Positions 1-16,085 of a stretch of DNA of 64,000 nucleotides are shown one piece after another. The DNA is from Rhizobiaceae bacterium (GTDB lineage: Bacteria > Pseudomonadota > Alphaproteobacteria > Rhizobiales > Rhizobiaceae). The translations under genes were made by a program, and so were the position numbers. The DNA is taken from NCBI GenBank assembly GCA_029233925.1, contig JARGOX010000013.1:48056-112055 (forward strand). Reading direction: 5' to 3'. Every line of letters starts with the position of its first letter. Positions within the stretch are counted from its first letter, which is position 1. A model generated the notes under the pieces. The model saw nothing but the letters and a program-made list of their open reading frames with translations, was not told where the DNA came from and ran no database searches.

Positions 1-1548
1 CGTTTCGACGTCGACGCGGATGCCGTGGGCACCGTGGTCTATGCAATCAAGACCCCGCAGCAGGAATTTTCCCTGATCGCCTTTTCCTTCGCACCGGAAC
101 GTGAAGGCCGCACGGGCCGCATCATCGGCCGGGCCTGGGACATGATGGGCACGCTGAATGAGGGACCGGCAACACAGGCAGACATCGACAGCGCGCGTCG
201 CAATCTGCCGTTGCTTTATCGCGGACGGGCGACGGCCAATGCGCTGGTCTGGTGCCGTTGCAACCGTTCCATGCGGGCGTTCGACGCTACGTTGAACGCC
301 TTGGCAGATGGCCGCCAGCCGCTCGTTTCCGACATCAACAAGGTCGGTTACCTGATGCGCAATACGGGCCTCGATGGCAACGGCACCTTCGGCACGCGGT
401 CCTTTCCCTCGCTTGGCCATGACCATGCGCTTGGCGGCGTCCTCGAAGCCCAGATGCTGCTGGCCTACCTGATGCGGGAGTTTTCCTGTGATCTCGTTGA
501 TCACCTGGCCAGGCTGAAGTCCGATAAGGCTGTCGCCCTGGCACCGGAAATCCGGCGCTATATCGGCGTTGGCAACGGCTCAGCCCTCGGCCTTATCTTC
601 TTCATCCAGAAGCACCCGCGCCTGATCAATGCCTGGATCGAGTCGCGTGAAAAGGCCATTGCATCGGCCTGTGGCTTGAGGCTGGAGGCTGGCGATCGGC
701 GTATTGCAGAGCTGATCACGCTTGTACAGCGGGCCATTGTCTTCAGAAGGCAAGACCAGATGTCCTATGAGACCTTCGCGTCATCGCGCATCATCGCTGA
801 TGAACTCGAAAAACTGACCCCCTATCTTGAGGAACTGCGCGTCAAGGGAACGATCGACGGCGAAGTCTGCGATTATCCGCTCGACGTTCTGGCCCGCAAG
901 GCGGAACAGGACTTTGAGCCGGAAGGCTATGAGACGTTCCTCTCGCTGATTGTCGAGCTTGTCGCTGAAGAGGCGGACGAGATGACAATGCAGGTGGAAG
1001 GCGTGGATGAGTTAAACGTCGATGCGCGCATGAAGATTGCGGAGCTGAAAGCCCTGATCACCAAAGACTATGCATGGGCGTTGTCGATTGACGCGGCCGC
1101 ACCCGATGCCAATGCCTATGTCTGGTACAAATCCGAAACTGCCGAAGAGCCGCGCCGGGGCGAGCGCACGGAGATTCCGCATGCCCGTGACCTTGGCCTC
1201 GACATGCCGGGCGACATCCAGCAGCTTCTGCACGATATCGAACTGGAAGAACCGGGGCTTTCCACCGCCCGCTTCCTGCTGAAATATCCACAGCACCGCC
1301 TGATGTGCGCGCGCGTTCAGAGCCTTGCCGGCACGCACTTTCACACGCCGCAGGCCAATATCAATGCGGTCGATTTTGTTCCGATCCAACTGGTGCGGCT
1401 GATGAATTCCGCCATTCACGGTATCGACAAGACGCGCGACTACCTGCAGCGCAACCTGCGGGGTGTTCTGTTTCATGGCGCTCCAACCACCAGCGATATT
1501 CGTGCCGGTCGCGGCGCCAGCTGGTTCTATCCTCAGGAGCCCAATTGA
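1..1548 (+). CDS. Large conserved hypothetical protein, 5'-truncated by the window edge
   Basis: Frame +1 is open from base 1 (RFDVDADAVGTVVY...) to TGA at 1546-1548. Motifs CNRS, GYLMRNTGLDGNGTFG, GVGNGSALG, WYKSETAEEPR. From recall it resembles an unannotated family found next to M19 dipeptidase genes in marine alphaproteobacteria. Confidence 0.85.
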   Translation, partial: RFDVDADAVGTVVYAIKTPQQEFSLIAFSFAPEREGRTGRIIGRAWDMMGTLNEGPATQADIDSARRNLPLLYRGRATANALVWCRCNRSMRAFDATLNALADGRQPLVSDINKVGYLMRNTGLDGNGTFGTRSFPSLGHDHALGGVLEAQMLLAYLMREFSCDLVDHLARLKSDKAVALAPEIRRYIGVGNGSALGLIFFIQKHPRLINAWIESREKAIASACGLRLEAGDRRIAELITLVQRAIVFRRQDQMSYETFASSRIIADELEKLTPYLEELRVKGTIDGEVCDYPLDVLARKAEQDFEPEGYETFLSLIVELVAEEADEMTMQVEGVDELNVDARMKIAELKALITKDYAWALSIDAAAPDANAYVWYKSETAEEPRRGERTEIPHARDLGLDMPGDIQQLLHDIELEEPGLSTARFLLKYPQHRLMCARVQSLAGTHFHTPQANINAVDFVPIQLVRLMNSAIHGIDKTRDYLQRNLRGVLFHGAPTTSDIRAGRGASWFYPQEPN

Positions 1549-2243
1549 TGACTGCTTGCCGTGAAAGCCTGCGGATCATGCCGCGCGAAATGCGCATGAT
1601 GTCCGAGCGCATCCTGTCACTGACCAATCTGCCAAAAGGTTTTGCCCTGATGGTCGGCGATGTCGTCATGTATTCCGAAGCCATGGGTCTGGGCGGTTTT
1701 GCACTGCTGGAACAACGGCTTGAAGCCCTGCTGCCCGCCGATCCGACGGCGCTTTCATTGGCAGGCGGCGCGGCACAGGAACTGGTGCTCGATGCTGGCG
1801 GACAGCATGCATGGTTTGTTGTCGCCAGTGTTCTGGACCTGCTCGACGAGGCACTGGAAAGCGGGAAAACTGCAGCGATCAAAGTCACAAATTGCATGGA
1901 TCCGGCCGAGCTTGCCATTGCTGCCGCTCTCGGCCGACGGGTCGGGCTTGAGATTGTCATGGATGGTTCCATCCTGTCCGCCAGCGCTACCGGGAAGCCC
2001 GCTGACCCGGTCCTTGACGCGGTGCTGACCGAGGGCTGCGCGATAGCAGCAGACCTGTGGTGGCGGATTTACGATCTTGCCAAGACCGCGCTTACACCGG
2101 AATCGGCTGTCTCACGACGGCATGCGGGGCCGATCATTGTTACCGAAGATGGGCAGATTATCGGTCGTGTCGACAATGATGACGACACCGACCTCCAATT
2201 CATCAGCAAGATATCCAACGGATCACAAGAGGCGCGATCATGA
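1548..2243 (+). CDS. Hypothetical protein, DUF3726-like (tentative)
   Basis: ATG at 1548 overlaps the upstream TGA (TGATG), with CAGGAG upstream. 231 aa. The N-terminal helical pattern PREMRMMSERIL...G...EAMGLGG recalls DUF3726. The CDS is secure; the family call is weaker. Confidence 0.7.
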   Translation: MTACRESLRIMPREMRMMSERILSLTNLPKGFALMVGDVVMYSEAMGLGGFALLEQRLEALLPADPTALSLAGGAAQELVLDAGGQHAWFVVASVLDLLDEALESGKTAAIKVTNCMDPAELAIAAALGRRVGLEIVMDGSILSASATGKPADPVLDAVLTEGCAIAADLWWRIYDLAKTALTPESAVSRRHAGPIIVTEDGQIIGRVDNDDDTDLQFISKISNGSQEARS

Positions 2244-3217
2244 TCATAGACGGTCTGCAATGCGGACATTTCGACCGAAAATCATTTGAATCACTCAAAC
2301 TGGCAGGTGTTGCCGGCGTGGTGGTGACCTGCGGTTTTTGGGAAGGGGCGCTTGAATCCCTCGACAGTCTTGGCGCCTGGCGCGATCTCATCGGTGAAAA
2401 CGCCGATATTGCAGCCATCGCCAAAACGCCCGCTGATATTGTCAGCGCCAATGAAGCGGGAAAGGTTGCTGCCATTCTCGGCTTTCAGAACGCCAATCTC
2501 CTGGAAGGACGCATCCGCCTGGTCGAGATGTTCGCCGAGTTGGGGGTGCGCGTCATCCAACTGACCTACAACAATCAGAACGAGCTTGCCGGCAGTTGCT
2601 ATGAGGCGGAAGATTCAGGTCTTGCCCGCTTCGGCAAGGAAGTGGTTCGTGAAATGAATGAAGCCGGTATTCTGGTCGATTGCAGCCATGTCGGAAATCG
2701 CTCGACGCTTGATGCAATCGAGGCTTCGGGCAAGCCCATCGCGGTGACACATGCCAATGCCGACAGCCTGTTCGCCCACAAGCGCAACAAGACCGATGAT
2801 GTGCTCAAGGCGCTTGGCCAGACCGGCGGCGTGATTGGCTGCGCCACCTATCGCAACATCACCGGTGACGCCTATTGTGCCACGCTGGAAGCCTGGTGCA
2901 CCATGGTGGCGCGCACGGTGGAGATTGCCGGTATTGACAGTGTGGCGATCGGTACGGATCGCAGCCACAATTTCACCGCACCTGACTATGCCTGGATGCG
3001 GCAGGGCCGCTGGACGCGCGGCGTCGATTATGGCGCTGCATCGGCAGCCCGCCCCGGCAAGGCGCCGCCTCCCGAATGGTTCCCGAATGTCGAAGACATC
3101 AATGTCATTCCACAAGGCCTCCGAAGCGTGGGCTTCTCGGAAGAAGAGGTCGCGAAGATAACCCACAAAAACTGGCTGCGTCTCTATGAGGCAACTTTCC
3201 GCAAATCCGAAACATAA
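2240..3217 (+). CDS. Membrane (renal) dipeptidase family M19 amidohydrolase-fold protein
   Basis: ATGA overlap with the previous gene. Motifs GFQNA, QLTYN, DCSH, THAN, RNKTD, IGTD, NWLR are typical of the M19 family. Confidence 0.88.
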   Translation: MIIDGLQCGHFDRKSFESLKLAGVAGVVVTCGFWEGALESLDSLGAWRDLIGENADIAAIAKTPADIVSANEAGKVAAILGFQNANLLEGRIRLVEMFAELGVRVIQLTYNNQNELAGSCYEAEDSGLARFGKEVVREMNEAGILVDCSHVGNRSTLDAIEASGKPIAVTHANADSLFAHKRNKTDDVLKALGQTGGVIGCATYRNITGDAYCATLEAWCTMVARTVEIAGIDSVAIGTDRSHNFTAPDYAWMRQGRWTRGVDYGAASAARPGKAPPPEWFPNVEDINVIPQGLRSVGFSEEEVAKITHKNWLRLYEATFRKSET

Positions 3218-3229
3218 GAGGGAATTAAA

Positions 3230-4279
3230 ATGACAGACCCAAAATTCAACTCCGGTCTCATCCTACCCAATCGCCGGCGATTTCTTCAAGGTTCGGCAGC
3301 ATTGGCTGCCGGCGCACTGGCAATGCCCTATGTGGCCCGTGCCGACGACAAGGTGCTCTATATCAATTCATGGGGCGGCCCATGGCTGGAGGCCGCCAAG
3401 GCCAATCTTTTCGATCCCTTCACGGCTGAAACGGGAATTGAGATTCGCACGGTTTCACCGGTGTCATTTGCCAAGCTGGCAGCCCAGGTCAAGACCGGTG
3501 TCTACGAGTTTGACGTGACGACTTTGGGTGGCGGCGATATTGTTCGCGCCAACGAGGCAGGCATCATCGAGGATCTCGAGGCACCTTATGAAGGTGGGCT
3601 CTTCCAGAATGGTGTTGCAAGCCACGCCTTTGCAACCGTGATGGCCTGGCGCACCGATACGATCAAGGAAACGCCGAAAAGCTGGGCTGATTTCTGGGAT
3701 GTCGAGCGCTTCCCCGGTGGCCGTTCGCTGCAGCGCTATGCAGCACGTGTCCTGCCGATTGCGCTTCTGGCGGATGGCGTTGCCATGGAAGATCTTTATC
3801 CGCTGGATATCGAGCGGGCCTTTGCCAAGCTTGATGAGATCAAGGACCATATCCGCGTCTGGTGGACGGCCGGTGCACAATCGACCCAGATCCTGCGCGA
3901 CGGCGAGATTGACATGATCGGCATCTGGCATGGCCGCTACTTTGAAGCCGAAGACGCCGGTGCGCCAGTTGCCATGACCTGGAACCAGGCTGAGATCGAC
4001 CGGGCCTATTGGGTTGTTGCAAAGGATACGCCGAACATGGAAGCGGCGAAGCTGTTCGTTGAATTCGCAACCTCGGCCAAACCGCTTGCCGGTTTTGCAT
4101 CGCAGGCCAAATACGGGGCACTTAACCCGGCGGCCAACGAATTCATCCCGGAGAGTGCCCAGCCACGCATGCCAACGTCACCTGCCAATTATCCGCTCGC
4201 CTTTGAGCAGGATATGAGCAACTGGGGTGGCGATCCGCATGAAGTCTCGGCCCGTTTCGATGAATGGCTTGCCAGCTGA
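3230..4279 (+). CDS. ABC transporter substrate-binding protein, PotD/PotF-like, Tat signal
   Basis: RRRFLQGSAALAAG...ARA twin-arginine leader; SWGG, SWADFWD, LLADGV motifs; RBS GAGGGA. Confidence 0.9.
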   Translation: MTDPKFNSGLILPNRRRFLQGSAALAAGALAMPYVARADDKVLYINSWGGPWLEAAKANLFDPFTAETGIEIRTVSPVSFAKLAAQVKTGVYEFDVTTLGGGDIVRANEAGIIEDLEAPYEGGLFQNGVASHAFATVMAWRTDTIKETPKSWADFWDVERFPGGRSLQRYAARVLPIALLADGVAMEDLYPLDIERAFAKLDEIKDHIRVWWTAGAQSTQILRDGEIDMIGIWHGRYFEAEDAGAPVAMTWNQAEIDRAYWVVAKDTPNMEAAKLFVEFATSAKPLAGFASQAKYGALNPAANEFIPESAQPRMPTSPANYPLAFEQDMSNWGGDPHEVSARFDEWLAS

Positions 4280-4313: not shown

Positions 4314-5162
4314 ATGAACCGCATGATCTCCCGTTTGTCTGAACAACAGAACCTGTGGCCCTGGCTGCTTCTGCTTCCCCTGTCTGCCTATCTGCTCGTC
4401 TTCTTTGCCGTTCCGTTGGCAGATGTGGTGCAGATGAGTGTTACCGAGCCAACCCTCGGTCTGCAAAACTACGAAAAAGTGCTGACCGGGAGCCTCTACC
4501 GCAAGGTGTTCCTCAACACCTTCATGACGGCCGGCATCGTCACCCTGTGTTGCCTGTTTGTCGGCTATCCGCTTGCCTATCTGATGGCCCATACCAGCCG
4601 GCGCAATGCCATGCTGATCCTGCTGCTGATCACCATGAGTTTCTGGACAAGCTTTCTAGTGCGCACCTATGCCTGGATGGTGCTTCTCGGCAACAACGGG
4701 CCGGTGATCTGGTTGATCCAGGCCATGGGCTTTGAGGAAAAACCGCACCTGCTTTTCACCCGGTTTTCCTCGACTTTGGCCATGGTGCATATCCTTGCGC
4801 CTTACATGATCATGAACATCTATTCGGTGATGCAGAAGATCGACAAATCGCTGATCCTGTCGGCCGAAAGCATGGGCGCGCGCGGTGCTTCGCTGTTTCG
4901 GCATATCTATCTTCCGCTGACTGCGCCGGGTATCGCCAACGGTTCGGTGCTGGTCTTTGTGATCTGCCTTGGTTTTTACGTCACGCCGGTGCTGCTGGGC
5001 AGCCCGCGTGAGCAAATGGCCGCCGGCCTGATCGGGCACCAGATCGAGGAATTCCTTGCCTTCGGGCTCGGTTCGGCCATGGCAATCGTTCTCCTGGGGG
5101 TCACTCTGGTGATTCTCGGCATCTACCATCGCCGTTTTGGCCTGGACAAATTGTGGGGCTGA
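4314..5162 (+). CDS. ABC transporter permease, PotB-like
   Basis: Hydrophobic segments, FWTSFLVRTYAW, EAA-like loop SAESMGA. Confidence 0.9.
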   Translation: MNRMISRLSEQQNLWPWLLLLPLSAYLLVFFAVPLADVVQMSVTEPTLGLQNYEKVLTGSLYRKVFLNTFMTAGIVTLCCLFVGYPLAYLMAHTSRRNAMLILLLITMSFWTSFLVRTYAWMVLLGNNGPVIWLIQAMGFEEKPHLLFTRFSSTLAMVHILAPYMIMNIYSVMQKIDKSLILSAESMGARGASLFRHIYLPLTAPGIANGSVLVFVICLGFYVTPVLLGSPREQMAAGLIGHQIEEFLAFGLGSAMAIVLLGVTLVILGIYHRRFGLDKLWG

Positions 5163-5163
5163 C

Positions 5164-5973
5164 ATGAACACCTTGATGCGCGTCATTGCCTACGCAGTGA
5201 TCATTTTCATCGCCGCGCCGCTGGTCATCGTTGTACCGATGTCGCTGTCGACGGCGTCTTCGCTGCAATTTCCGCCGCCTGGCTACTGGCTGGGGTACTA
5301 TGCGTCCTATTTCTCCGATCCCGGCTGGTTGCGGCCAACCTGGAACAGCATTGTGATTGCCAGTGCAACGACGGTGCTGACCATGATCCTGGTGGTTCCG
5401 GCTGCTTTTGCACTGGTGCGCCACAAGTTCTGGGGCAAGGGCGTCGCCAATCTGATGTTGATGATGCCCATGGCCGTGCCGCATATCGTGATGGCGGTCG
5501 GCTATTACTCGGTCTTCGGTCAGATGCGGCTGGTTCACACGCATCTGGGCGTCATTCTGGCGCATACCTGTCTGTCGGTGCCGATCACCTTTCTGGTTCT
5601 GTCCGCCAATCTGAAAGGTTTTGACCGGACATTGGAACGTGCCGCCCGCAGCCTGGGCGCTTCGCCGCTGCAGACCTTTGGCCATGTGACGCTGCCGATC
5701 CTGCGCCCGGGCCTTCTCATTTCGGCACTCTTTGCCTTTATCCAGTCATTCGACGAAACCGTGGTTGCGATCTTCATATCGGGTCGTGATGCAGAAACCC
5801 TGCCGCGCAAGATGTTTGACAGCATCCGGCAGGAAGCAGATCCGGTTATCGCCGTCATTTCCAGCCTGCTTTTCCTGATCGTGGCGATCGCGCTGATTGC
5901 ACCGCATGTCGTTTCGGCGCTGCGCGGACGGTTTACCACCAAGGGACAGGAAAAGGCGCTCATCGCGCAATAG
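5164..5973 (+). CDS. ABC transporter permease, PotC-like
   Basis: ATG 1 nt after the previous stop; LERAARSLGASP loop; SFDETVVA motif. Confidence 0.9.
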   Translation: MNTLMRVIAYAVIIFIAAPLVIVVPMSLSTASSLQFPPPGYWLGYYASYFSDPGWLRPTWNSIVIASATTVLTMILVVPAAFALVRHKFWGKGVANLMLMMPMAVPHIVMAVGYYSVFGQMRLVHTHLGVILAHTCLSVPITFLVLSANLKGFDRTLERAARSLGASPLQTFGHVTLPILRPGLLISALFAFIQSFDETVVAIFISGRDAETLPRKMFDSIRQEADPVIAVISSLLFLIVAIALIAPHVVSALRGRFTTKGQEKALIAQ

Positions 5974-5987
5974 CAATCGGAGACTTC

Positions 5988-7058
5988 ATGAGCAGCTATC
6001 TGAGCCTCAAGGGCATCAACAAGAGCTATGGTGATTTCGTCGCACTGGACGATGTCAATCTGGAAATCAAAAAGGGCGAATTCGTCACCTTTCTGGGCCC
6101 GAGCGGTTCGGGCAAGACAACGACGCTGATGATCATCGCCGGATTCGAAAAGGCCACACGCGGTGAAGTCGAAATCGAGGGCCTGTCGCTTGCCGGTCTC
6201 GATCCGCAGGACCGCAATATCGGCATTGTATTTCAGAATTATGCGCTGTTTCCGCACAAGTCGGCGGTGGAAAATGTCTATTTCCCGCTGCAAATGCGCA
6301 AGGTCAAGCGCAAGGAGGGCATGCGCCGCGCAGAAGAAATGCTTGAGCTCGTCGGGCTGAAGGGTTTCTCGCACCGTCACCCGAAGGAATTGTCAGGTGG
6401 CCAGCAGCAACGTGTGGCGCTGGCGCGCGCGCTGGTGTTCGGACCGGACCTGTTGCTTCTCGATGAACCATTGGGGGCGCTGGACAAGAATCTGCGTGAG
6501 CAGATGCAGATCGAGATCAAGCGCATACAGAAGAAACTGGGCGTCACGACGATTTTCGTGACCCATGATCAGACGGAAGCGATGTCGATGTCGGACCGGA
6601 TCGTGATCTTTTCCCAGGGCAGCATTCAACAGGCCGATGCGCCGCTTGAAATCTATCACCGCCCGAAGACCCAATTCGTCGCCGACTTTATCGGAGAAAG
6701 CAATCTGCTTGCCGGAAAAGTCGTCGATGCTGCCAGCGGGATCCTGAGCAGTCCGGTTCTGGGCGACTGCACCTATTCCGGCGATCATCAGCCAGCCGTG
6801 GAAAACGGCCAGGATGTCACGATTGTCCTGCGGCCGGAGAATTTGACAATTTCACGCGATCCGATCGAGGGGAGGATGAATGGCAGGATGAAGATCGAAA
6901 CAATCGTCAATTATGGTGATAATGCCCTTGTCATCGGCCTGAGCGGTGGCGTGCCGATCCGTGTGCGCGTTCTGGGTGCGGATGTGGTTATCCTCAGTGA
7001 GGGTGATGAATGCTGTTTTTCCTGGGATGAAGACGCGATCTTCCTGGTTGCGGAATAG
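5988..7058 (+). CDS. ABC transporter ATP-binding protein, PotA-like, with C-terminal TOBE
   Basis: Walker A GPSGSGKT, signature LSGGQQQR, Walker B LLLLDEP, H-loop VTHD. Confidence 0.93.
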   Translation: MSSYLSLKGINKSYGDFVALDDVNLEIKKGEFVTFLGPSGSGKTTTLMIIAGFEKATRGEVEIEGLSLAGLDPQDRNIGIVFQNYALFPHKSAVENVYFPLQMRKVKRKEGMRRAEEMLELVGLKGFSHRHPKELSGGQQQRVALARALVFGPDLLLLDEPLGALDKNLREQMQIEIKRIQKKLGVTTIFVTHDQTEAMSMSDRIVIFSQGSIQQADAPLEIYHRPKTQFVADFIGESNLLAGKVVDAASGILSSPVLGDCTYSGDHQPAVENGQDVTIVLRPENLTISRDPIEGRMNGRMKIETIVNYGDNALVIGLSGGVPIRVRVLGADVVILSEGDECCFSWDEDAIFLVAE

Positions 7059-7068
7059 GGGCGTCGAT

Positions 7069-7470
7069 ATGGATGATATTGTAGATATTGCGGGCACTAT
7101 TGCCCATTTTGGTATTGGTGCACGGGCCTCGATCGCCACTGTGCACCAGGGAACAGGATATTTTGCTGTTACCCCCAAAACCCCTTATGACGGCGCACTT
7201 TCGACTGCGGAGCAGGCCGACCAGTTGTTTGAAAAAGCCGAGGCACGATTGTCGCAGATCGGCTCATCGAAACAGGGTCTGCTGTTTGTCGCCATCCTGC
7301 TGCGCGACATTGGTGATGTCGCGGCGTTCAACGAGCGCTGGGATGCCTGGGTCGCCGGCGTCACACCGCCTGCCCGTGCCTGTTTCGAGGCAAGGCTGGC
7401 CAATCCGGATATGAAAGTCGAGATGATCATGGTGTGCGCGGCTGCGCCTGCCAGTGATGTACAGGCATGA
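7069..7470 (+). CDS. RidA/YoaB-like enamine/imine deaminase family protein
   Basis: 133 aa from ATG 7069; FNERWDAW and PPARACFEARLANPDMKVEM motifs, including the family's catalytic Arg position. Confidence 0.85.
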   Translation: MDDIVDIAGTIAHFGIGARASIATVHQGTGYFAVTPKTPYDGALSTAEQADQLFEKAEARLSQIGSSKQGLLFVAILLRDIGDVAAFNERWDAWVAGVTPPARACFEARLANPDMKVEMIMVCAAAPASDVQA

Positions 7471-7749
7471 TGGAACTCAATTTCGCATGCCCAGCCAGTC
7501 CGCATGGATGATGTTTGATGTCAGTCGTAAAAGCGGCGGCCAGATTGACAGACATAGTGGTTAAGGCACGAATTTCGAACCGGAACCACACTCTATTCTT
7601 TTGACGGTTTAGACTGATTCATCAGAACATTGGATCGTGTTGCCTGTGTTTTTGGGTGCTCTCCATCCAAAGCCATCACGCGGATTGCCAATGCCTGGCC
7701 CGATTCATGCGTGCCAAGCCGGTTCATCCCTGCCAAAAAGGGACTGTCT

Positions 7750-8208
7750 CTAGTTTTCGAGACCGGCTGTAAAATTGTTCTTGACCCTTGCCACCCGGCT
7801 CAGGAGTGTCAGAAACAAACGCTGCTCTTCCTGCGACAGGTCACACAAAAGCTCCTCCTGGATCGCATCCAGACTGGGCTGTATTTCCTTCATCAAAGCC
7901 TGTCCCTCATCGGTCAGACTGATCAGATGGCCACGGGGTGATCTGTCGCTTCGGTCGCGACGCAACAGGCCCTTGCGTTCCAGCCGCCTGATAATGTCGC
8001 TGACCGTCATCGGGTCCAGCACAGCGGCGGCCGCCACGCCCTTTTGTTCCAGGTTTTCATTTTGAAGGACAACAATCAAAACCGACATTTGCGGCGCTGT
8101 CAGCGTGGTGTGCCCAAGTCGCTCATTGAAAAGGGCGGCGAAACGCTGTTGTGCCCGGCGAATCAAATGGGCCGGCTGATTATACAGAGGCAGTACGGCA
8201 GGCGTCAT
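7750..8208 (-). CDS. MarR family transcriptional regulator
   Basis: PAHLIRRAQQ, LTAPQMSVL, RLERKGLLRR, LTDEG winged-helix motifs. Confidence 0.9.
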   Translation of the reverse strand: MTPAVLPLYNQPAHLIRRAQQRFAALFNERLGHTTLTAPQMSVLIVVLQNENLEQKGVAAAAVLDPMTVSDIIRRLERKGLLRRDRSDRSPRGHLISLTDEGQALMKEIQPSLDAIQEELLCDLSQEEQRLFLTLLSRVARVKNNFTAGLEN

Positions 8209-8514
8209 TCAAAGTCCCGATTCATGTGCGCCATGATTGATGCGCTAGCGCTCTAAAAGCGACTATAGACTGCATTGCCGTGATGGCAAAGGCCAACAAA
8301 AGTTGAATTTTCCGTACGATATAACGATTTTTCCATGAATTTTTGCTGCAGCCTTGAAATTATCGCACTCTTTTGCTGCCTTTGTGCTTTGATGCAAGGC
8401 GGCCATGTCTTCGTGGTCAGACCTTCGCTGTCAGACGCCGCAGGACGAAGCATCCTTGCAAGGGGGTGCAGTTGAGCCGAAAGGTTCAGCGAAAAGCTTT
8501 CGATGGGAGAGACA

Positions 8515-11500
8515 ATGCCACATCATTTCAAAACAATTGCCGCTGTGTTGATTTCGGGACTGATGCTGGGATGGCTTGTCATGGGAATGGCCCAGGCGGC
8601 CGAGACGCGCCAGATCACCACTTTCAACAATGCCGATTTTTTTGGCTTTGATCTGCGGGCTGAAAAGAATGTCTCGCTGGATCGCTGCAAATCCTCCTGT
8701 CTGAGCGACCGCCAATGCCGCGCCTTTACCTATAATTCCAGCGCGCAATGGTGTTTTCTGAAATCCGATTTCAATCAACTCAACAGGTTCGAAGGGGCGA
8801 TTGCCGGCAAGGTGATCACGGTTTCGGCCAGTGACGCCGATATCGGCGCTGCCCCGCAACTGGCGTTTCTTTCGGAAAATCTATACGCTGAAGCCTCCCG
8901 TGAAGGCGCAGAGATTGCCAAAATGCAATCGGCCGATTATGGCCTTGCGGCCACGACAATTGCGGCTGAGGATGCCCTGGCGGCCGGAAATATGGCCTAT
9001 GCGCTGAATGCATTTCGCGTTGCCATTGCCATTGATTCGACCAGTGCTGACCTGTGGCTGGGCCTTGCGGAAGCCACATGGCGTGAACTGGCGCAAAATA
9101 ATTATCAAGGCTACGAAATGCAGCGAAAGGCCACATCGGCGGCGCTGAATGCCTATCAAAAATCACGTACGGTTGATGTGCGGGCCGATGCACTGGCAAA
9201 ACTGGCCAGAGCGCTGGCCATCCAGCAACAGTACCGGCCGGCGCTGGAAACCTACAAGGAAAGCCTTGCTCTGGTGGATTCACCGCGGGTACGCGCGGCC
9301 TTTCAGGACCTGTCTGCGCGCAAGGGGTTTCGCGTTGTTGAGCATACGATCGATGCCGACAGCGCATCGGCACGTGTCTGCGTGGTTTTCTCCGACCCGC
9401 TGGTCAAATCGGGCGTCAATTATGCGTCCTTTGTGACCATTGACGGCCGCGCCGCGAGCAGCGTTGTTGCCAAGGACAAGCAGATCTGCGCGGAAGGCCT
9501 GGAGCATGGCAGCGAATATCGGGTGTCATTGAGGGCGGGCCTGCCGGCGGACATCGGAGAAGTGCTCATGGCGCCGGTTACCATTACGGCCTACGTCCGT
9601 GACCGGTCTCCGACCGTGCGTTTTACCGGTGATAATTTTGTCCTTGCCAAGGCCGGTCGCAAGGGCATTCCGGTTGTCAGCGTCAATGCCGACAAGGTTG
9701 AAATCGAACTTTACCGAATCGGTGAACGGTCGCTTGCACCGCTGCTGGCCAAATCGCAGTTCCTGCGGCAGCTCGACGGCTATGATGCCGGCAATATTCG
9801 TGAAGATCTGGGTGAACTGGTGTGGCAGGGAGATCTGCTGACACAGAACGAGCTCAATGGCGAAACGGTCACGAGTTTTCCAATCGACGAAGCGCTTCCG
9901 CAGCGCGAGCCGGGTGTCTATGTGCTGATGGCGCGGGTGGCTGGTGAGACGCTGGATAACTGGAGCAGTCGGGCGACGCAATGGCTTGTGGTTTCCGATA
10001 TCGGCCTTTCTACCCTTGCCGGCAGCGACGGTTTGCATGTGTTTGCCCGTTCGCTCGATAGCGCCCTGCCGACAGCCGGTCTCAAGCTGACATTGCTGGC
10101 ACGCAACAATGAGATTCTGGGTGAGGCCATTACGGATGAAAACGGGCGGGCAAGCTTTGTTGCCGGTCTGATCCGTGGCAAGCAGGCTCTGGCACCAGCG
10201 GTCATGACTGCTGACAATGGCCGGGGCGATTTCGTCTTTCTCGATATGACCCGCGCCGGGTTTGATCTTTCCGATCGTGGCGTTTCAGGACGGCCGGCAC
10301 CCGGTCCGCTGGATATTTTCACCTGGACCGACAGGGGTATCTACAGGGTGGGTGAAACGGTGCATCTGTCCGCGATGATCCGCGATGACGAAGCCGAGGC
10401 AGTTTCCAACCTGCCTTTGACCTTTGTTGTGCTGCGCCCCGACGGCAAGGAAGACCGTCGCGTGGTGCGCACCGGCGGTGAGATTGGTGGTTACGGGTTT
10501 GACCTCGAGATACCATCCAATGCCATGCAGGGCGCCTGGAATGTCAGGACCTATGCTGATCCCAAGTCAAATTTTCTGAATGAAACGGCCTTTCTGGTCG
10601 AGGATTTCAGGCCGGACCGGATAGCCTTTGAGCTTGATCTGCCAAAGACCCCGCTGGAGGCCGATGGCATCGCCTCCGCAAGGGTTGATGGACGTTTTCT
10701 CTACGGCGCCCCGGCAGCCGGGCTTGCGGTTGAAGCCGAGTTGAAACTCAAGGCCGTGCGCGCGCGTTCCGAATTTCCCAAATATGTGTTTGGCCTGTCG
10801 GACGAGGACAGCATTGCTGCGCGGGTCAATCTGGCGAATGTGCCGCCCCTTGACGCCGAGGGTCTGAGCGATATTGCCATTGAACTGGGCACGCTGCCTT
10901 CCACCACCCACCCGCTTGAGGCGGAATTGACCGTCCGATTGAGTGAAGGCGGCGGGCGCGCTGTGGAGCGCACCGGCACCATGGCGGTGCGGCCTTCCGG
11001 CATGATGATCGGCATCCGGCCGGAGTTTGAAGACGGGCTCGTCGGTGAGAACACGACGGCGGCCTTTAAGGTGATTGCCGCCGGTCCTGATGGCACGACA
11101 CAGGATGCCAATGGGTTGAAATGGTCCTTGCTGCGCATTGAGCGCAATTATCAATGGTATCGGGAAGGCAATTCCTGGCGGTATGAGGCGGTCGAATTCA
11201 CCAGGCAGATCGCCGATGGCACCATCAATATCAATGCCGATGCGCCTGCCGATATCGCTTCTGCCGTGGGCTGGGGACGGTATCGCCTGCTGGTTGAATC
11301 GTCCGAGATCAACGGACCGGCAACCAGCGTTGAATTCAGTGCCGGCTGGTACGTCAGCGCGGCATCCACCGAGACGCCTGACGGCCTGGAAATTGCCCTC
11401 GATAAAGCGCTCTATCTGGTTGGCGAGACTGCGCAATTGCAGATATCTCCACGTTTTGCAGGCCAGGCGCTGATCACCATCGCCAATGACGGGCTGCGGC

Positions 11501-13989
11501 GGGTTCTGACGGCTGACGTTCCCGAAGAGGGTGCCGTCATTGGAATCCCGGTCGCCGACGATTGGGGTGCTGGCGCCTATGTCATGGTGACATTGATCCG
11601 GCCGGGGAGCGATGCAACAAGCCGCATGCCTTCACGCGCTGTCGGGATCCAGTGGTTGAGCGTCAGCCCGCAGGACCGGGCCCTTGAGGTCACCATGAAT
11701 GTGCCGGAGAAGATCGCTCCCAACAGCACGCTGACGATACCTGTTTCCGTGCGTGGGGCCGGCGCCCATGAAGAGGCACGCTTCACACTGGCGGCCGTCG
11801 ATGTGGGCATTTTGAACCTGACGGCTTTTGCGCCGCCCGATCCGCAGAACTGGTATTTCGGGCAACGCCGCATGGGCTTTGAGATTCGTGACCTCTACGG
11901 GCGTCTGATCGACGGTTCGCAAGGGGTGACAGGACGGATCCGCTCCGGCGGTGACGGGCCGGCGCTGGGAATCAAGGGCAGCCCGCCGAAGGAAAGGTTG
12001 GTGGCGCTCCATTCGGGCATCGTGACCCTGGACGATAACGGACAGGCACTGGTCAGCTTTGACATACCGCAGTTCAACGGCACGCTGAAACTGATGGCCG
12101 TGGCCTGGACGCAGAGCGGCGTCGGACAGGCCGACAGGGATCTGATTGTGCGTGATCCCGTGGTGATCACCGCGAGCCTGCCGAAATTCCTGGCACCCGA
12201 CGATGTCTCGCAATTGCGCTTTGACTTTGCCAATACGGATGGTCCTTCCGGTGAATACGCCCTTTCGCTGGATGTTGATCCGTCGCTGGATATCGACCGG
12301 TCCGGCTTTGGTCAAACGGTGTCGCTGGCGCGTGGACAGTCACAATCATTGATCATTGGCGTCAAGGCGGGACAGCCCGGGACTGCCGAGATCGCCATGC
12401 GGCTTACGGCGCCGGACGGAACAATCATCGAGAATGTCCAGCAGTTGGTAGTACGTCCGGCAACCCTGCCGGTGACGACGCGGCTGGAATTGCCGTTGGC
12501 GGCCAATGGCGGGTCCGCCATGATTGACCGCGAGCTGCTGGCCACCAGCTTTTTGGGCGGGGCCAGTGTCAGCATTGGCATATCGCACTCCAATATCGAT
12601 GTTCCGGGACTGCTGATGTCCCTTGATCGCTATCCCTATGGTTGCGCCGAGCAGACAACAAGCAGGGCTCTGCCATTGCTCTATCTCAGTGAGCTGGATG
12701 CGCCGGCCGCATTGCTGGAAGATCCTGGTCTGCGCAATCGGGTGCAATCAGCTGTCGAGCGTGTGCTTGCCTATCAGTCATCCGAGGGCAGTTTCGGTCT
12801 TTGGGGGCCGGGCGGCGGCGATCTCTGGCTCAACGCCTATGTCGGCGATTTTCTGACGCGGGCTCGCGAGAAGAATTACGCGGTTCCCGAACAGGCGATG
12901 CGCCTGGCGCTGGACAATCTGCAAAATGTCCTGTCCTACAACAATGATCTGGCTGACAATGGCGGGGGCATTGCCTATGCGCTCTATGTTCTGGCGCGCA
13001 ACAAACGCGCCTCGGCCGGTGATCTGCGCTATTATGCGGATGCGCAGCTGGATGCCTTCCGGTCACCGCTGGCCCGGGCACAGATTGCCGCTGCGCTGGC
13101 GCTTTATGGTGATGCGGAGCGGGCCCAGCGGGTCTTTGCTTCCGCCTATCGTCTGGCCGGATCATCACAATCCATCGCCCATGAAAACTACGGTTCACTT
13201 CTGCGCGATGATGCTGCCATGCTGGCACTTGCGGGTGAAAGCCGTCCGGTATCCCCGCTTTTGGGCGACATGGTCAAACTGGTCTCTGACCGGCAAATGA
13301 CAGCGCCTGCCAGAACCACCCAGGAACAGGCCTGGATGCTTCTGGCGGCCCGGGCGTTGCAGGACACGGACCGGAAGCTGTCGCTGCGGGTCGATGGCGA
13401 TATCATTGAAGGGGCCTATAGCAGCACTGTCGACGGGAGCGAACTTGCGGCGCGTCCGGTCCGCATCGAGAATGTTGGCGACCAACCGGTCACCGCCATG
13501 GTGACCAGCGTGGCGGCGCCGCTTGAACCGCTGCGCGCAGGCGGCAATGGATTTGAAATTGATCGCAAATACTACACAATGGATGGTGACGAGGTGGCTA
13601 TTGAGGCGGTCAAACAGAATGAACGATTTGTGGTCGTTCTCACCATCAGGCAGACCAACGCGCTGGGATCGCAGATCCTGGTGACGGATCTCTTGCCGGC
13701 GGGACTCGAAATCGACAATTCCCGACTGGTGGAAAGTGCAACGCTTTCGAATTTCTCCTGGCTGGGTGAAACCAATCCGGCCCACGTGGAGTTTCGTGAC
13801 GACCGGTTCGTTGCAGCCTTCGAGACCAGCGCCAATGACGTCGATAAAGCCATCCAGGTGGCCTATGTTGTGCGTGCTGTTGTGCCGGGCATCTATACCC
13901 ATCCGGCTGCGCAGGTGGAGGATATGTACCGGCCCGAGTTCGTGGCCCGCACTGCCACGCGCTGGATTGAGGTCAAGGCAGCGGATTGA
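8515..13989 (+). CDS. Bacterial alpha-2-macroglobulin with N-terminal PAN/apple domain
   Basis: About 1824 aa; signal peptide ending AQA; Cys-rich PAN module (C..SC....CRAFTY....WCFLK); TDRGIYRVGETV MG2 motif; thioester YPYGCAEQ (CAEQ at 12643-12654); coupled to pbpC. Confidence 0.93.
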   Translation: MPHHFKTIAAVLISGLMLGWLVMGMAQAAETRQITTFNNADFFGFDLRAEKNVSLDRCKSSCLSDRQCRAFTYNSSAQWCFLKSDFNQLNRFEGAIAGKVITVSASDADIGAAPQLAFLSENLYAEASREGAEIAKMQSADYGLAATTIAAEDALAAGNMAYALNAFRVAIAIDSTSADLWLGLAEATWRELAQNNYQGYEMQRKATSAALNAYQKSRTVDVRADALAKLARALAIQQQYRPALETYKESLALVDSPRVRAAFQDLSARKGFRVVEHTIDADSASARVCVVFSDPLVKSGVNYASFVTIDGRAASSVVAKDKQICAEGLEHGSEYRVSLRAGLPADIGEVLMAPVTITAYVRDRSPTVRFTGDNFVLAKAGRKGIPVVSVNADKVEIELYRIGERSLAPLLAKSQFLRQLDGYDAGNIREDLGELVWQGDLLTQNELNGETVTSFPIDEALPQREPGVYVLMARVAGETLDNWSSRATQWLVVSDIGLSTLAGSDGLHVFARSLDSALPTAGLKLTLLARNNEILGEAITDENGRASFVAGLIRGKQALAPAVMTADNGRGDFVFLDMTRAGFDLSDRGVSGRPAPGPLDIFTWTDRGIYRVGETVHLSAMIRDDEAEAVSNLPLTFVVLRPDGKEDRRVVRTGGEIGGYGFDLEIPSNAMQGAWNVRTYADPKSNFLNETAFLVEDFRPDRIAFELDLPKTPLEADGIASARVDGRFLYGAPAAGLAVEAELKLKAVRARSEFPKYVFGLSDEDSIAARVNLANVPPLDAEGLSDIAIELGTLPSTTHPLEAELTVRLSEGGGRAVERTGTMAVRPSGMMIGIRPEFEDGLVGENTTAAFKVIAAGPDGTTQDANGLKWSLLRIERNYQWYREGNSWRYEAVEFTRQIADGTININADAPADIASAVGWGRYRLLVESSEINGPATSVEFSAGWYVSAASTETPDGLEIALDKALYLVGETAQLQISPRFAGQALITIANDGLRRVLTADVPEEGAVIGIPVADDWGAGAYVMVTLIRPGSDATSRMPSRAVGIQWLSVSPQDRALEVTMNVPEKIAPNSTLTIPVSVRGAGAHEEARFTLAAVDVGILNLTAFAPPDPQNWYFGQRRMGFEIRDLYGRLIDGSQGVTGRIRSGGDGPALGIKGSPPKERLVALHSGIVTLDDNGQALVSFDIPQFNGTLKLMAVAWTQSGVGQADRDLIVRDPVVITASLPKFLAPDDVSQLRFDFANTDGPSGEYALSLDVDPSLDIDRSGFGQTVSLARGQSQSLIIGVKAGQPGTAEIAMRLTAPDGTIIENVQQLVVRPATLPVTTRLELPLAANGGSAMIDRELLATSFLGGASVSIGISHSNIDVPGLLMSLDRYPYGCAEQTTSRALPLLYLSELDAPAALLEDPGLRNRVQSAVERVLAYQSSEGSFGLWGPGGGDLWLNAYVGDFLTRAREKNYAVPEQAMRLALDNLQNVLSYNNDLADNGGGIAYALYVLARNKRASAGDLRYYADAQLDAFRSPLARAQIAAALALYGDAERAQRVFASAYRLAGSSQSIAHENYGSLLRDDAAMLALAGESRPVSPLLGDMVKLVSDRQMTAPARTTQEQAWMLLAARALQDTDRKLSLRVDGDIIEGAYSSTVDGSELAARPVRIENVGDQPVTAMVTSVAAPLEPLRAGGNGFEIDRKYYTMDGDEVAIEAVKQNERFVVVLTIRQTNALGSQILVTDLLPAGLEIDNSRLVESATLSNFSWLGETNPAHVEFRDDRFVAAFETSANDVDKAIQVAYVVRAVVPGIYTHPAAQVEDMYRPEFVARTATRWIEVKAAD

Positions 13990-16085
13990 TGCCCAAGACG
14001 CGCGCCTTGCGATTGCTGGCGGCAGTAGCGGGCATCGGCGGCTGCATGGTAGTTGCCGTTGTTCTGCTGGCGATTGTGCTGGACCACACCCATCCGCCGC
14101 CGCTTCCGGACCAAAGGCCTCTGTCTGCCGAGGTGCTGGATCGAGACGGACAATTGTTACGGGTCTTTGCAGCCGGTGACGGCCGCTGGCGCATGAAGGC
14201 GGGACTTGCGGACATTGATCCGGAATTCATCGATCTGCTGATCGCCTATGAGGACAAGCGCTTCTGGACGCATCACGGCGTGGATCCTCTGGCGATGGCA
14301 CGGGCCTTTCGCCAGATGGCCACCAGCGGGCATATCGTTTCCGGTGGTTCGACAATCACCATGCAACTGGCCCGGCTGCTGGAGCCGCGTGTTTCGCGCA
14401 CGCTGGCCGCCAAAATGCGGCAGATTGCACGGGCCTTGCAGCTGGAGCGACGCCTGAGCAAGCGGCAAATCCTCGAATGGTATCTCACCCTTGCACCCTA
14501 TGGCGGCAATCTGGAGGGAACACGGGCCGCAAGCCTGTCCTATTTCGGTGCCGAGCCGTCATCCCTGACCCTGTCTCAGGGAGCTCTGCTGGTTGCCTTG
14601 CCGCAATCACCGGAAATGCGCAGGCCCGATCGCTATCCCATGGCGGCCAGGCAGGCCGGTCTGCGGGTTTTGCAGCGCGCCGCCTCAAGCGGGCTGATTG
14701 ATCCGGCTGAAGTGCAGCGTGTGGCTGGTCGGGATGTGACCGTGAGGCGACGCGCCTTGCCGGCGCTGGCTGCCCATATGGCCCAAAGGGCCCATCAGAG
14801 TGATCCGGATGCGCTGCGCCACCAGACCAGCCTTCTGCGCGATGTGCAGGCCAATCTGGAGGTGGTGGCCCGCGATGCGGCAGAAAGGCTCGGTGAGCGA
14901 TTGTCCGTTGCCATTGTCATGGCTGACAGTCGCGATGGTTCCATTCTGGGCCAGGTGGGCTCGGCGAATTTTTTTGATGGTCGCCGTTTTGGCTGGATTG
15001 ACATGACGCGGGCCCAGCGCTCACCCGGCTCAACCCTCAAGCCGCTCATCTATGGTCTGGCTTTTGGCGAAGGTCTGGTGCTTCCCGAAACATTGATAGC
15101 CGATCGGCCAATTGATTTTTCCGGTTATCGGCCGCGTAATTTTGACCTGAATTTCCAAGGCGATGTCAGCATTCGGCGGGCGCTGCAATTGTCGTTGAAT
15201 GTTCCGGCCATTCGATTGCTGCAGGCGGTTGGTCCGGCGCGACTCACCGCATTGTTGCGCGAGGCTGGTGTTGATTATGCAATGCCGTCGCAGGACAACG
15301 CCGGTCTTTCGATCGGGCTGGGCGGTCTCGGCATCAGCCTTCTGGATCTGGTGCAGGTCTATACCAGCCTGGCAACCGTGGATGGCCGTTCTGTCGTTCT
15401 TTCCAACGGGGTAGACCTGCCGGCGGGCACGGCTCCGGCAAATCCGCTGCTGCAGAATGCAGCACGCTGGCATGTGGGTGATATTCTGCGCGGCATTGCT
15501 GCGCCAGCCCAATCATTGCAGGTCGACATCGCCTACAAGACCGGCACGAGCTACGGTTACCGGGATGCCTGGTCGGTGGGCTACGACGGACGCTACGTCA
15601 TCGGCGTTTGGATCGGGCGGGCGGACAACAGCGCCGTTCCGGGGCTGACCGGCCTGTCGGCGGCAGCACCCGTGCTGTTTGAAGCCTTTGGCCGCTCGGG
15701 AGTGGATCTGGTGCCCTTTCGTGCAGCGCCGCCCGGCGCCGTGCGCATTGCGAGGTCCGATCTGCCGGAATCGATGCGTCGCTTTGAGCGTTTCGAAGAC
15801 ACGTTCCAGCATCATGCGGCCGGTGAAAGCAAACCGCATATCGCCTATCCTCCCGACGGCGCGCGCATAGAACTCAGTCGCGGCTCGGGACAGCGCTTTG
15901 ATCCACTGGTGCTGAAACTGCAGGGTGGCAGACCACCCTTTCGCTGGCTTGCCAATGGCAGTCCGGTCGAGCAATGGGTCCGCCAGCGCAATTGGCATTG
16001 GATGCCGGATGGTCGTGGCAGCGCAACGCTTGCCGTCATCGATGCGTCAGGGCAAACCGCCAATGTCAATATTGTGGTTGATTGA
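13989..16085 (+). CDS. pbpC: Penicillin-binding protein 1C
   Basis: Transglycosylase EDKRF and GGSTITMQLAR; transpeptidase STLK, SLN, KTG; TGATG coupling to the macroglobulin gene. Confidence 0.93.
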   Translation: MPKTRALRLLAAVAGIGGCMVVAVVLLAIVLDHTHPPPLPDQRPLSAEVLDRDGQLLRVFAAGDGRWRMKAGLADIDPEFIDLLIAYEDKRFWTHHGVDPLAMARAFRQMATSGHIVSGGSTITMQLARLLEPRVSRTLAAKMRQIARALQLERRLSKRQILEWYLTLAPYGGNLEGTRAASLSYFGAEPSSLTLSQGALLVALPQSPEMRRPDRYPMAARQAGLRVLQRAASSGLIDPAEVQRVAGRDVTVRRRALPALAAHMAQRAHQSDPDALRHQTSLLRDVQANLEVVARDAAERLGERLSVAIVMADSRDGSILGQVGSANFFDGRRFGWIDMTRAQRSPGSTLKPLIYGLAFGEGLVLPETLIADRPIDFSGYRPRNFDLNFQGDVSIRRALQLSLNVPAIRLLQAVGPARLTALLREAGVDYAMPSQDNAGLSIGLGGLGISLLDLVQVYTSLATVDGRSVVLSNGVDLPAGTAPANPLLQNAARWHVGDILRGIAAPAQSLQVDIAYKTGTSYGYRDAWSVGYDGRYVIGVWIGRADNSAVPGLTGLSAAAPVLFEAFGRSGVDLVPFRAAPPGAVRIARSDLPESMRRFERFEDTFQHHAAGESKPHIAYPPDGARIELSRGSGQRFDPLVLKLQGGRPPFRWLANGSPVEQWVRQRNWHWMPDGRGSATLAVIDASGQTANVNIVVD

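Follow-up and report, generated by a model that had tools for sequence, protein, structure and literature searches.

Does a protein that keeps the fold of a renal dipeptidase, but not the whole of its metal centre, still act on dipeptides? The question is raised by P0001, the product of a stop-free reading of 325 amino acids at positions 2240-3217 (plus strand) of a 64,000-nucleotide stretch of DNA, hereafter the window, from a Rhizobiaceae bacterium (assembly GCA_029233925.1, contig JARGOX010000013.1, positions 48,056 to 112,055 of the forward strand). A preliminary description of the locus, made from the sequence alone, had held this M19 'dipeptidase' to be probably not a dipeptidase. The analysis presented here leads us to favour, with somewhat better than even confidence, the view that P0001 is a cytoplasmic M19-fold enzyme which is not a binuclear dipeptidase and functions as a non-peptide C-N hydrolase with one metal or none, acting after the two proteins encoded immediately upstream of it, a HomB-like protein of 571 residues and a partner of 231 residues. 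The subfamily-wide residue signature, the clade structure with its four genomic contexts and the location of P0001 in a sister of a known catabolic operon go beyond the published account of that operon; searches of the literature returned nothing on this M19 subfamily or its degenerate zinc site.

P0001 belongs to the M19 fold, as its sequence is matched by the Pfam family Peptidase_M19 (PF01244) with an E-value of 1e-72. The match begins only at profile position 35, leaving the N-terminal strand with the HxD motif outside it, and neither P0001 nor the HomB-like protein nor the 231-residue partner is matched by any NCBIfam model. The AlphaFold2 model of P0001, based on an alignment of 54 sequences, has a predicted local distance difference test (pLDDT) score of 95.2. 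Comparison of this model with Foldseek gave a template modelling (TM) score of 0.92 and a root mean square deviation of 1.9 Å against the Protein Data Bank (PDB) entry 2i5g, which is also the best solved relative in a profile search with HMMER (E 3e-51), and TM scores of 0.81 against both human renal dipeptidase (1itq) and the characterised Streptomyces dipeptidase Sco3058. A signal peptide or membrane anchor is absent, and P0001 is considered cytoplasmic because the first strand of the barrel, beta-1, already begins at residue 2 of the model.

The residues of the metal centre depart from this overall similarity in a specific manner. The roles of human His20, Asp22, Glu125, His198, His219, Arg230 and Asp288 have been laid out previously (PMC9305348). 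P0001 has Leu, Cys, Gln and Tyr at the positions of human His20, Asp22, Glu125 and His152, respectively, whereas His198, His219, Asp288 and Arg230 are all retained. In the HMMER alignment to Sco3058 (3id7), Gln83 occupies the position of the bridging Glu and Tyr110 that of the oxyanion His, a residue that stabilises the transition state, while His150 corresponds to a beta-site His and Arg182 to the carboxylate-binding Arg. A canonical M19 protein encoded in the same genome (L086:7870-8937) carries the motifs DGHND, IEGAE, DLSH, THSN and GSDFDG, to which P0001 aligns with IDG-LQC, GFQNA, DCSH, THAN and GTD. P0001 thus shares with the canonical M19 enzymes (1itq, 3id7) the TIM-barrel, the two beta-site His residues, the Asp acting as general base and the Arg that binds the carboxylate, and differs from them in the absence of His20, Asp22, Glu125 and His152; half of the two-zinc centre implied by the annotation 'dipeptidase' is lost. 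The preliminary description had noted that the alpha-site His and Asp and the bridging Glu are lost whereas both beta-site His and the Asp persist, and this is borne out by the alignments to Sco3058, to the canonical M19 protein of the same genome and to the subfamily; likewise, the comparison with human renal dipeptidase that it had proposed finds the M19 fold kept and His20, Asp22 and Glu125 not conserved. Two features go beyond that description, namely the replacement of His152 by Tyr and an insertion of about 30 residues after the GTD strand (strand 8), the latter accompanied by an N-terminal region shorter than that of canonical M19 proteins.

Conservation of these positions was examined in a wider set of sequences. 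A HMMER pass over 1.84 billion cluster representatives yielded 540 proteins at E<=1e-30, and 115 full-length sequences among the best 150 matches, each representing one 50%-identity cluster, were taken as the conservation sample. The pattern x-x-Gln-Tyr-His-His-Asp at the seven reference positions is found in about 110 of the 115 representatives, with Gln83 and His150 conserved in 100%, His171 in 99%, Tyr110 and Arg182 in 97% each and Asp240 in 95%, at an overall identity of only 30-50%. Residue 8, at the position of Asp22, is not fixed in the subfamily (C, Y, I, V, A). Thr30, Gln107, Cys120 and Glu122 are specific to the subfamily, and the Cys-Tyr-Glu loop that includes the last two is invariant in all three main clades (dgc, hom and pot/ctx2, described below), making it a candidate for an extra ligand or catalytic residue. 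Purifying selection is evident from the pairwise ratios of nonsynonymous to synonymous substitution (dN/dS) between P0001 and its orthologues, which lie between 0.04 and 0.14 with dS saturated, and P0001 is the best-conserved protein of its operon (77-85% identity, as against 60-70% for the HomB-like protein). In view of the subfamily-wide conservation, the low dN/dS and the rank of P0001 within its operon, the residue pattern is a family trait rather than a chance occurrence, and the site is maintained and remodelled, not decayed.

A maximum-likelihood tree of 52 sequences has the topology (dgc,(hom,(ctx2+pot))), the labels denoting the genomic contexts of the M19 genes. By the Shimodaira-Hasegawa-like approximate likelihood ratio test (SH-aLRT), the dgc clade has a support of 97, the hom clade (15 rows) of 98 and the clade uniting pot and ctx2 of 99. 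P0001 belongs to a Pot-linked clade (support 94) that itself falls among the ctx2 sequences, and stands outside the hom clade and in its sister clade. A phylogeny with dgc-linked homologues had been suggested in the preliminary description; these share the signature of P0001, which falls in a separate clade (SH-aLRT 97-99). The closest relatives of P0001, 68-78% identical to it, are the ctx2 proteins, encoded in clusters that comprise a LacI regulator, an NMT1-type ATP-binding cassette (ABC) importer, a 549-residue flavin adenine dinucleotide (FAD) oxidoreductase of the Amino_oxidase type, M19, Amidohydro_2 and sometimes an aldehyde dehydrogenase. The FAD oxidoreductase and Amidohydro_2 adjoin the M19 gene in all 12 of the 12 ctx2 loci, where the HomB-like gene is absent; since these relatives occur without HomB, the M19-like protein is a free-standing enzyme fed by different upstream enzymes and not an obligate HomB subunit. 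A relationship between the HomB-like protein and the 549-residue oxidoreductase was ruled out, as BLASTP detects no similarity between the two. Each of the four contexts identified is a catabolic cluster for small molecules that includes solute importers, and a peptide-uptake cluster is not among them, in keeping with the earlier view that P0001 is probably not a dipeptidase; the canonical M19 gene of the same genome adjoins a 531-residue open reading frame (ORF) judged by eye to encode a putative peptide-type binding protein.

The dgc clade includes the solved structure 2i5g, whose pattern DGL, FQNA, TYN, SH, TH and GTD (VIDGL.../GFQNA in 2i5g) is common to P0001. The cluster representative matching 2i5g, P0253, does so over residues 1-214 only and lies on a 2.5-kb contig, and the dgc context was accordingly taken from whole-genome searches. 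A gene 87% identical to P0253 over residues 1-212 stands in the order AraC/DJ-1 regulator, M19, DUF5943, DgcA, DgcB and electron transfer flavoprotein (ETF), DgcA having the domains Oxidored_FMN and Pyr_redox and DgcB the domains DUF3483, Fer4 and CCG. The pattern of 2i5g and this gene order confirm the existence of a dgcAB-linked M19 protein with the DGL/FQN variant, which the preliminary description had mentioned. The dgc operon has been described as beginning with PA5396, whose insertion mutant resembles the dgc mutants, though the insertion may be polar, and PlcH hyperinduction is the only phenotype reported for it. PA5396/2i5g has the same Q/Y/H/H/D active-site signature as P0001 and differs in its separate clade and in its context of DUF5943, DgcA, DgcB and ETF without a HomB-like partner; DUF5943, dgcA and dgcB are all absent from the vicinity of P0001. 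The gene at the PA5397 position encodes a 176-residue DUF5943 protein (L106:6011-6541). In the four dgc-type loci that were inspected it invariably separates M19 from dgcA, and it resembles the small partner proteins of the hom and pot contexts in being short, uncharacterised and encoded next to the M19 gene.

The hom clade takes its name from the homABCDER operon of Ruegeria pomeroyi, involved in the catabolism of homarine (N-methylpicolinate) (Ferrer-Gonzalez et al., Nat Microbiol 2026, PMC13236597). In that report, SPO3192-SPO3188 correspond to homR, D, C, B and A, with HomC being SPO3190; homA (about 700 nt) and homB (about 1,700 nt) are both of function not known, a peptidase function is predicted for HomC, HomD is an aldehyde dehydrogenase and homR encodes a regulator. 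Growth on homarine is lost in the homB, homC, homD and homR mutants (SPO3188-3192), and the products of homarine include N-methylglutamate and features of the formulas C7H9NO5, C6H9NO4 and C6H9NO3 (PMC13236597). The family placement of HomC was read from a locus of Ruegeria lacuscaerulensis with the same five-gene order as R. pomeroyi, in which a LysR regulator is followed by aldehyde dehydrogenase, M19, a 561-residue protein without a Pfam family, DUF3726 and Ldh_2. HomC is a protein of the present M19 subfamily because this order matches the published order R-D-C-B-A. HomC-type M19 genes lie beside HomB-type genes in 14 further sampled genomes.

The Rhizobiaceae genome itself carries a complete hom-type cluster on a different contig from that of P0001. 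The M19 protein of this cluster has 39% identity to P0001, and the 559-residue protein aligns to the HomB-like 571-residue protein with 33% identity (E 4e-71). HomC and P0001 have the Q/Y/H/H/D and Cys-Tyr-Glu loop signature in common and belong to sister clades, and both operons contain a three-gene core in which the M19 gene is accompanied by a protein of about 560 residues without a Pfam family and by a partner of about 230 residues. The two operons differ, however, in their regulators (IclR in that of P0001, LysR in hom), in their importers (PotABCD/gamma-aminobutyric acid (GABA)-type and betaine-type, respectively) and in their accessory enzymes, as the P0001 operon has a RidA gene and no aldehyde dehydrogenase, which the hom operon has. 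The core genes of the P0001 operon are in the order B-A-C and its small partner is not detectably DUF3726; comparison of the 231-residue family with the genome's own DUF3726 (HomA-type) protein gave an hhalign probability of 0.1 and no match in BLASTP. P0001 is thus a paralogue of HomC that belongs to another operon with different equipment. The occurrence of both operons in a single genome makes it probable that their substrates differ, that of P0001 probably being other than homarine, and the presence of the hom-type cluster predicts that the organism uses homarine or a close analogue.

The operon of P0001 comprises, in order, genes for an IclR regulator, the 571-residue HomB-like protein, the 231-residue protein, P0001, a PotD-type binding protein, two permeases, an ATPase and a RidA-family protein. 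Of 80 loci, about 65 keep this arrangement; they come from Rhizobiales, Rhodobacterales, Marinobacter, Vreelandella and a Casimicrobiaceae metagenome-assembled genome. The HomB-like gene adjoins the M19 gene in about 65 of the 80, and the matches of its product in the ESM Atlas are all to clusters named 'hypothetical protein'. The gene of the 231-residue protein overlaps both neighbours (TGATG and ATGA), which indicates translational coupling with the HomB-like gene and with P0001. The model of this small protein matches 1z2i in Foldseek (E 2e-5 over 138 columns), corresponding only to the N-terminal 138 or so residues of the type-2 malate/lactate dehydrogenases, and weak Pfam Ldh_2 matches are present in four of 21 orthologues; the protein itself has no Pfam family. 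HomA has been reported to have FAD-binding motifs (PMC13236597); the modelled fold of the 231-residue protein does not suggest a flavin reductase. The Ldh_2-type dehydrogenase family to which this fold relates includes piperideine-2-carboxylate reductases. The nearest solved relatives of the binding protein are 4i1d, the polyamine-annotated Agrobacterium entries 4eq7/4euo (which we take to be the GABA-binding Atu4243), a GABA-sensor scaffold and binders of the opines mannopine and agropine. The RidA gene follows the ATPase gene in 45 of the approximately 63-65 loci with this type of operon. A thiamine pyrophosphate (TPP)-dependent enzyme, acetolactate-synthase- or benzoylformate-decarboxylase-like, is encoded close to the operon in 47 of 80 loci, and in the present genome it lies just upstream of the window. 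Its identification as Xsc (sulfoacetaldehyde acetyltransferase) was dropped, the best matches being acetolactate-synthase-like and benzoylformate-decarboxylase-like. The true start of its 614-residue ORF is probably about 100 codons later than annotated, as the homology begins at residue ~101.

Coordinates of P0001, its active-site codons, the genes of its operon and related clusters. Positions are those of the window unless a locus is named.
Feature	Position	Strand	Basis or remark
P0001, M19-fold protein with remodelled metal site	2240..3217	+	ORF translation, Pfam, model
Leu-Gln-Cys, codons 6-8, at His20-x-Asp22 (alpha-zinc ligands)	2255..2263	+	alignment
Gln, codon 83, replacing bridging Glu125	2486..2488	+	alignment
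Tyr, codon 110, replacing His152 (oxyanion residue)	2567..2569	+	alignment
Cys-Tyr-Glu loop, codons 120-122	2597..2605	+	subfamily conservation
Retained beta-site His, codon 150 (human His198)	2687..2689	+	alignment
Retained beta-site His, codon 171 (human His219)	2750..2752	+	alignment
Retained Arg, codon 182 (carboxylate-binding Arg of Sco3058, human Arg230)	2783..2785	+	alignment
Retained Asp, codon 240 (human Asp288, general base)	2957..2959	+	alignment
HomB-like 571-aa protein, C-terminal 515 residues; gene begins upstream of the window	1..1548	+	no Pfam family
231-aa protein, Ldh_2 N-terminal fold, HomA position	1548..2243	+	model (pLDDT 86), Foldseek
PotD/F-superfamily periplasmic binding protein, Tat-type (twin-arginine translocation) signal	3230..4279	+	profile matches
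Two ABC permeases, PotB-like and PotC-like	4314..5973 (4314-5162, 5137-5973)	+	profile matches
ABC ATPase, PotA/PhnT2-like	5988..7058	+	profile matches
RidA/YjgF-family protein, 133 aa, last gene of the operon	7069..7470	+	PF01042, E 2.4e-14
Divergent TPP-dependent enzyme beside XRE-cupin regulator	L084:9134-10978	-	just upstream of the window on the contig
Hom-type cluster of the same genome: DUF3726, 559 aa, M19, aldehyde dehydrogenase, Ldh_2, LysR, OpuAC-type ABC importer	L085 (G000:C35:142000-161999), 4373-14481		different contig
ctx2 cluster, Oceanibacterium hippocampi	L087:4489-13438		also loci L066-L080

For P0001, we infer the catalysis, the type of bond, the number of metals and the substrate as follows. 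Since the alpha-zinc site and the bridging carboxylate are replaced, P0001 would not be a binuclear dipeptidase; since it keeps both beta-site His, the Asp of the general base and the Arg that binds a carboxylate, it would, with one metal or without any, cleave a C-N bond beside a carbon that carries a carboxylate. The acyl part of the substrate is presumably not aminoacyl, because the Asp that pairs with the free amino group of a peptide has been lost. A small zwitterionic nitrogen compound may be taken up through the adjacent GABA/opine-type ABC importer and be acted upon by the HomB-like protein and its 231-residue partner with the Ldh_2-fragment fold, and, by analogy with homarine, these two proteins would likely deliver an N-formyl or N-acyl enamine or a lactam ring to P0001. 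The enamine or imine product could then be deaminated by the RidA-like protein to a 2-oxo acid, which the nearby TPP-dependent decarboxylase-like enzyme may decarboxylate. For HomC, formula arithmetic allows two routes: N-formyl-N-methyl-dehydroglutamate (C7H9NO5) and water would give formate and C6H9NO4, or a hydroxypyridone carboxylate lactam (C7H7NO4) and water would give C7H9NO5. The mononuclear or remodelled site acting on an N-formyl, N-acyl or imine intermediate, put forward in the preliminary description, is plausible in that it fits the published formulas of the homarine intermediates.

Mechanistic analogues are known in the amidohydrolase superfamily. E. coli NagA is an N-deacetylase with a single beta-site metal and QxN instead of HxH, LigI is a pyrone lactonase that works without metal, and the trigonelline pathway of Acinetobacter baylyi includes a formyl-removing step. 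In these systems the loss of strand-1 ligands, seen also in P0001, goes with the hydrolysis of small N-acyl or ring compounds using one metal or none. They have no sequence relationship to P0001 beyond the superfamily, and the strand-3 Glu is still a ligand in NagA whereas P0001 has Gln. On a more tentative note, the subfamily as a whole may consist of unrecognised metal-poor amidohydrolases, with a single Cys/His/His metal or none, that open or deformylate N-substituted enamides or lactams, and the operon may specify a catabolic route, as yet undescribed, by which Alphaproteobacteria of soil and sea use a solute that resembles GABA or is a pyridine carboxylate but is not homarine; we regard this as a possibility of distinctly lower probability than one in even balance.

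Several points weigh against the function proposed for P0001. The label 'HomA-like' for the 231-residue protein rests on its position and a presumed common Ldh_2-like character, the operon lacks an aldehyde dehydrogenase so that its chemistry may depart from homarine breakdown, and the relatives of the binding protein bind GABA and opines, not pyridines. Cys120 and Glu122 could rebuild a one- or two-metal site near His150 and His171, and the phenotype of the PA5396 transposon mutant may reflect polarity on dgcAB. Among the members of the subfamily, HomC has been described only as a predicted peptidase (PMC13236597).

The same evidence has to be weighed under other explanations. Without the Lewis-acid metal and the oxyanion His, the site would suit a chemistry that has no need of carbonyl polarisation, and P0001 could be a metal-free iminium or imine hydrolase, or a carbinolamine lyase, that finishes an oxidative C-N cleavage started by an oxidoreductase encoded next to it, with the release of an aldehyde or formaldehyde and an N-substituted amino acid. 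Enzymes of amine-oxidising type adjoin the M19 gene in three of the four contexts (the trimethylamine dehydrogenase (TMADH)-like DgcA with DgcB, and the 549-residue FAD protein in 12 of 12 ctx2 loci), the hom loci and some of the ctx2 loci have an aldehyde dehydrogenase gene next to it, and a RidA-like imine deaminase is encoded in the operon of P0001. We nevertheless regard this function as unlikely, as such imines and carbinolamines usually hydrolyse spontaneously, the His/His/Asp set that P0001 keeps is the amide-hydrolysis core of the superfamily, and amide hydrolysis (formyl or lactam) explains the formulas of the homarine intermediates well. A metallo-dipeptidase in which substitute ligands such as Cys120 and Glu122 rebuild a binuclear or equivalent site would account for the invariant, subfamily-specific Cys/Glu pair and for the kept carboxylate-binding Arg, beta-site His pair and Asp, and a Cys/His/His metal site exists within the same superfamily in D-aminoacylase. 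Neither of the alpha-site positions has a conserved ligand, though, position 8 being freely variable, and the Asp pairing with the free amino group of a dipeptide is gone. Peptide-uptake contexts are lacking while the genome keeps a separate canonical M19 gene beside the putative peptide-type binding protein, and HomC is required for the use of homarine, not of peptides (PMC13236597); dipeptidase activity is therefore very improbable.

A further explanation dispenses with catalysis and takes P0001 as a binding or chaperone-like partner that holds or passes on an unstable intermediate from the HomB-like enzyme. It has a precedent in PvdM (3b40), an M19 homologue annotated as 'dipeptidase' whose zinc site is degenerate and non-functional, which only presents ferribactin to PvdP and shows that such annotations can be wrong (PMC9305348), and the translational coupling of P0001 to its two upstream partners is compatible with it. 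The resemblance is limited by the fact that PvdM has lost four of the five ligands including His198, its remaining His being dispensable on mutation (PMC9305348), whereas in P0001 the His/His/Asp core is invariant and His150, His171, Asp240, Gln83 and Tyr110 are conserved at 95-100% over deep divergence. PvdM is, moreover, periplasmic and membrane-anchored while P0001 is cytoplasmic and without a signal peptide, and both the close ctx2 relatives and the dgc-linked members occur without HomB. A purely non-catalytic role thus appears quite improbable, and hydrolysis of a non-peptide C-N bond remains the function we favour for P0001.

The remodelled site shared across the subfamily corrects the annotation of its members, labelled 'membrane dipeptidase' in thousands of genomes, among them the genes in the dimethylglycine operon of Pseudomonas and in the homarine operon of marine bacteria that are abundant. 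It also connects three or four catabolic pathways by a single putative C-N cleavage step. The sister operon points to a further nitrogen-solute pathway. Gln83, Tyr110, Cys120, Glu122, His150, His171, Arg182 and Asp240 constitute a residue set for mutagenesis, and the solved structure 2i5g is available for reading the active site.

Downstream of the operon, a gene for a MarR-family regulator (window 7750-8208, minus strand) lies between the operon end and a macroglobulin gene. The region 8503-16085 of the window encodes a bacterial alpha-2-macroglobulin of 1828 residues with an N-terminal PAN domain and, with a 4-nt overlap, a PBP1C-type transglycosylase/transpeptidase of 699 residues. The two constitute a classic periplasmic defence pair with no relation to P0001.

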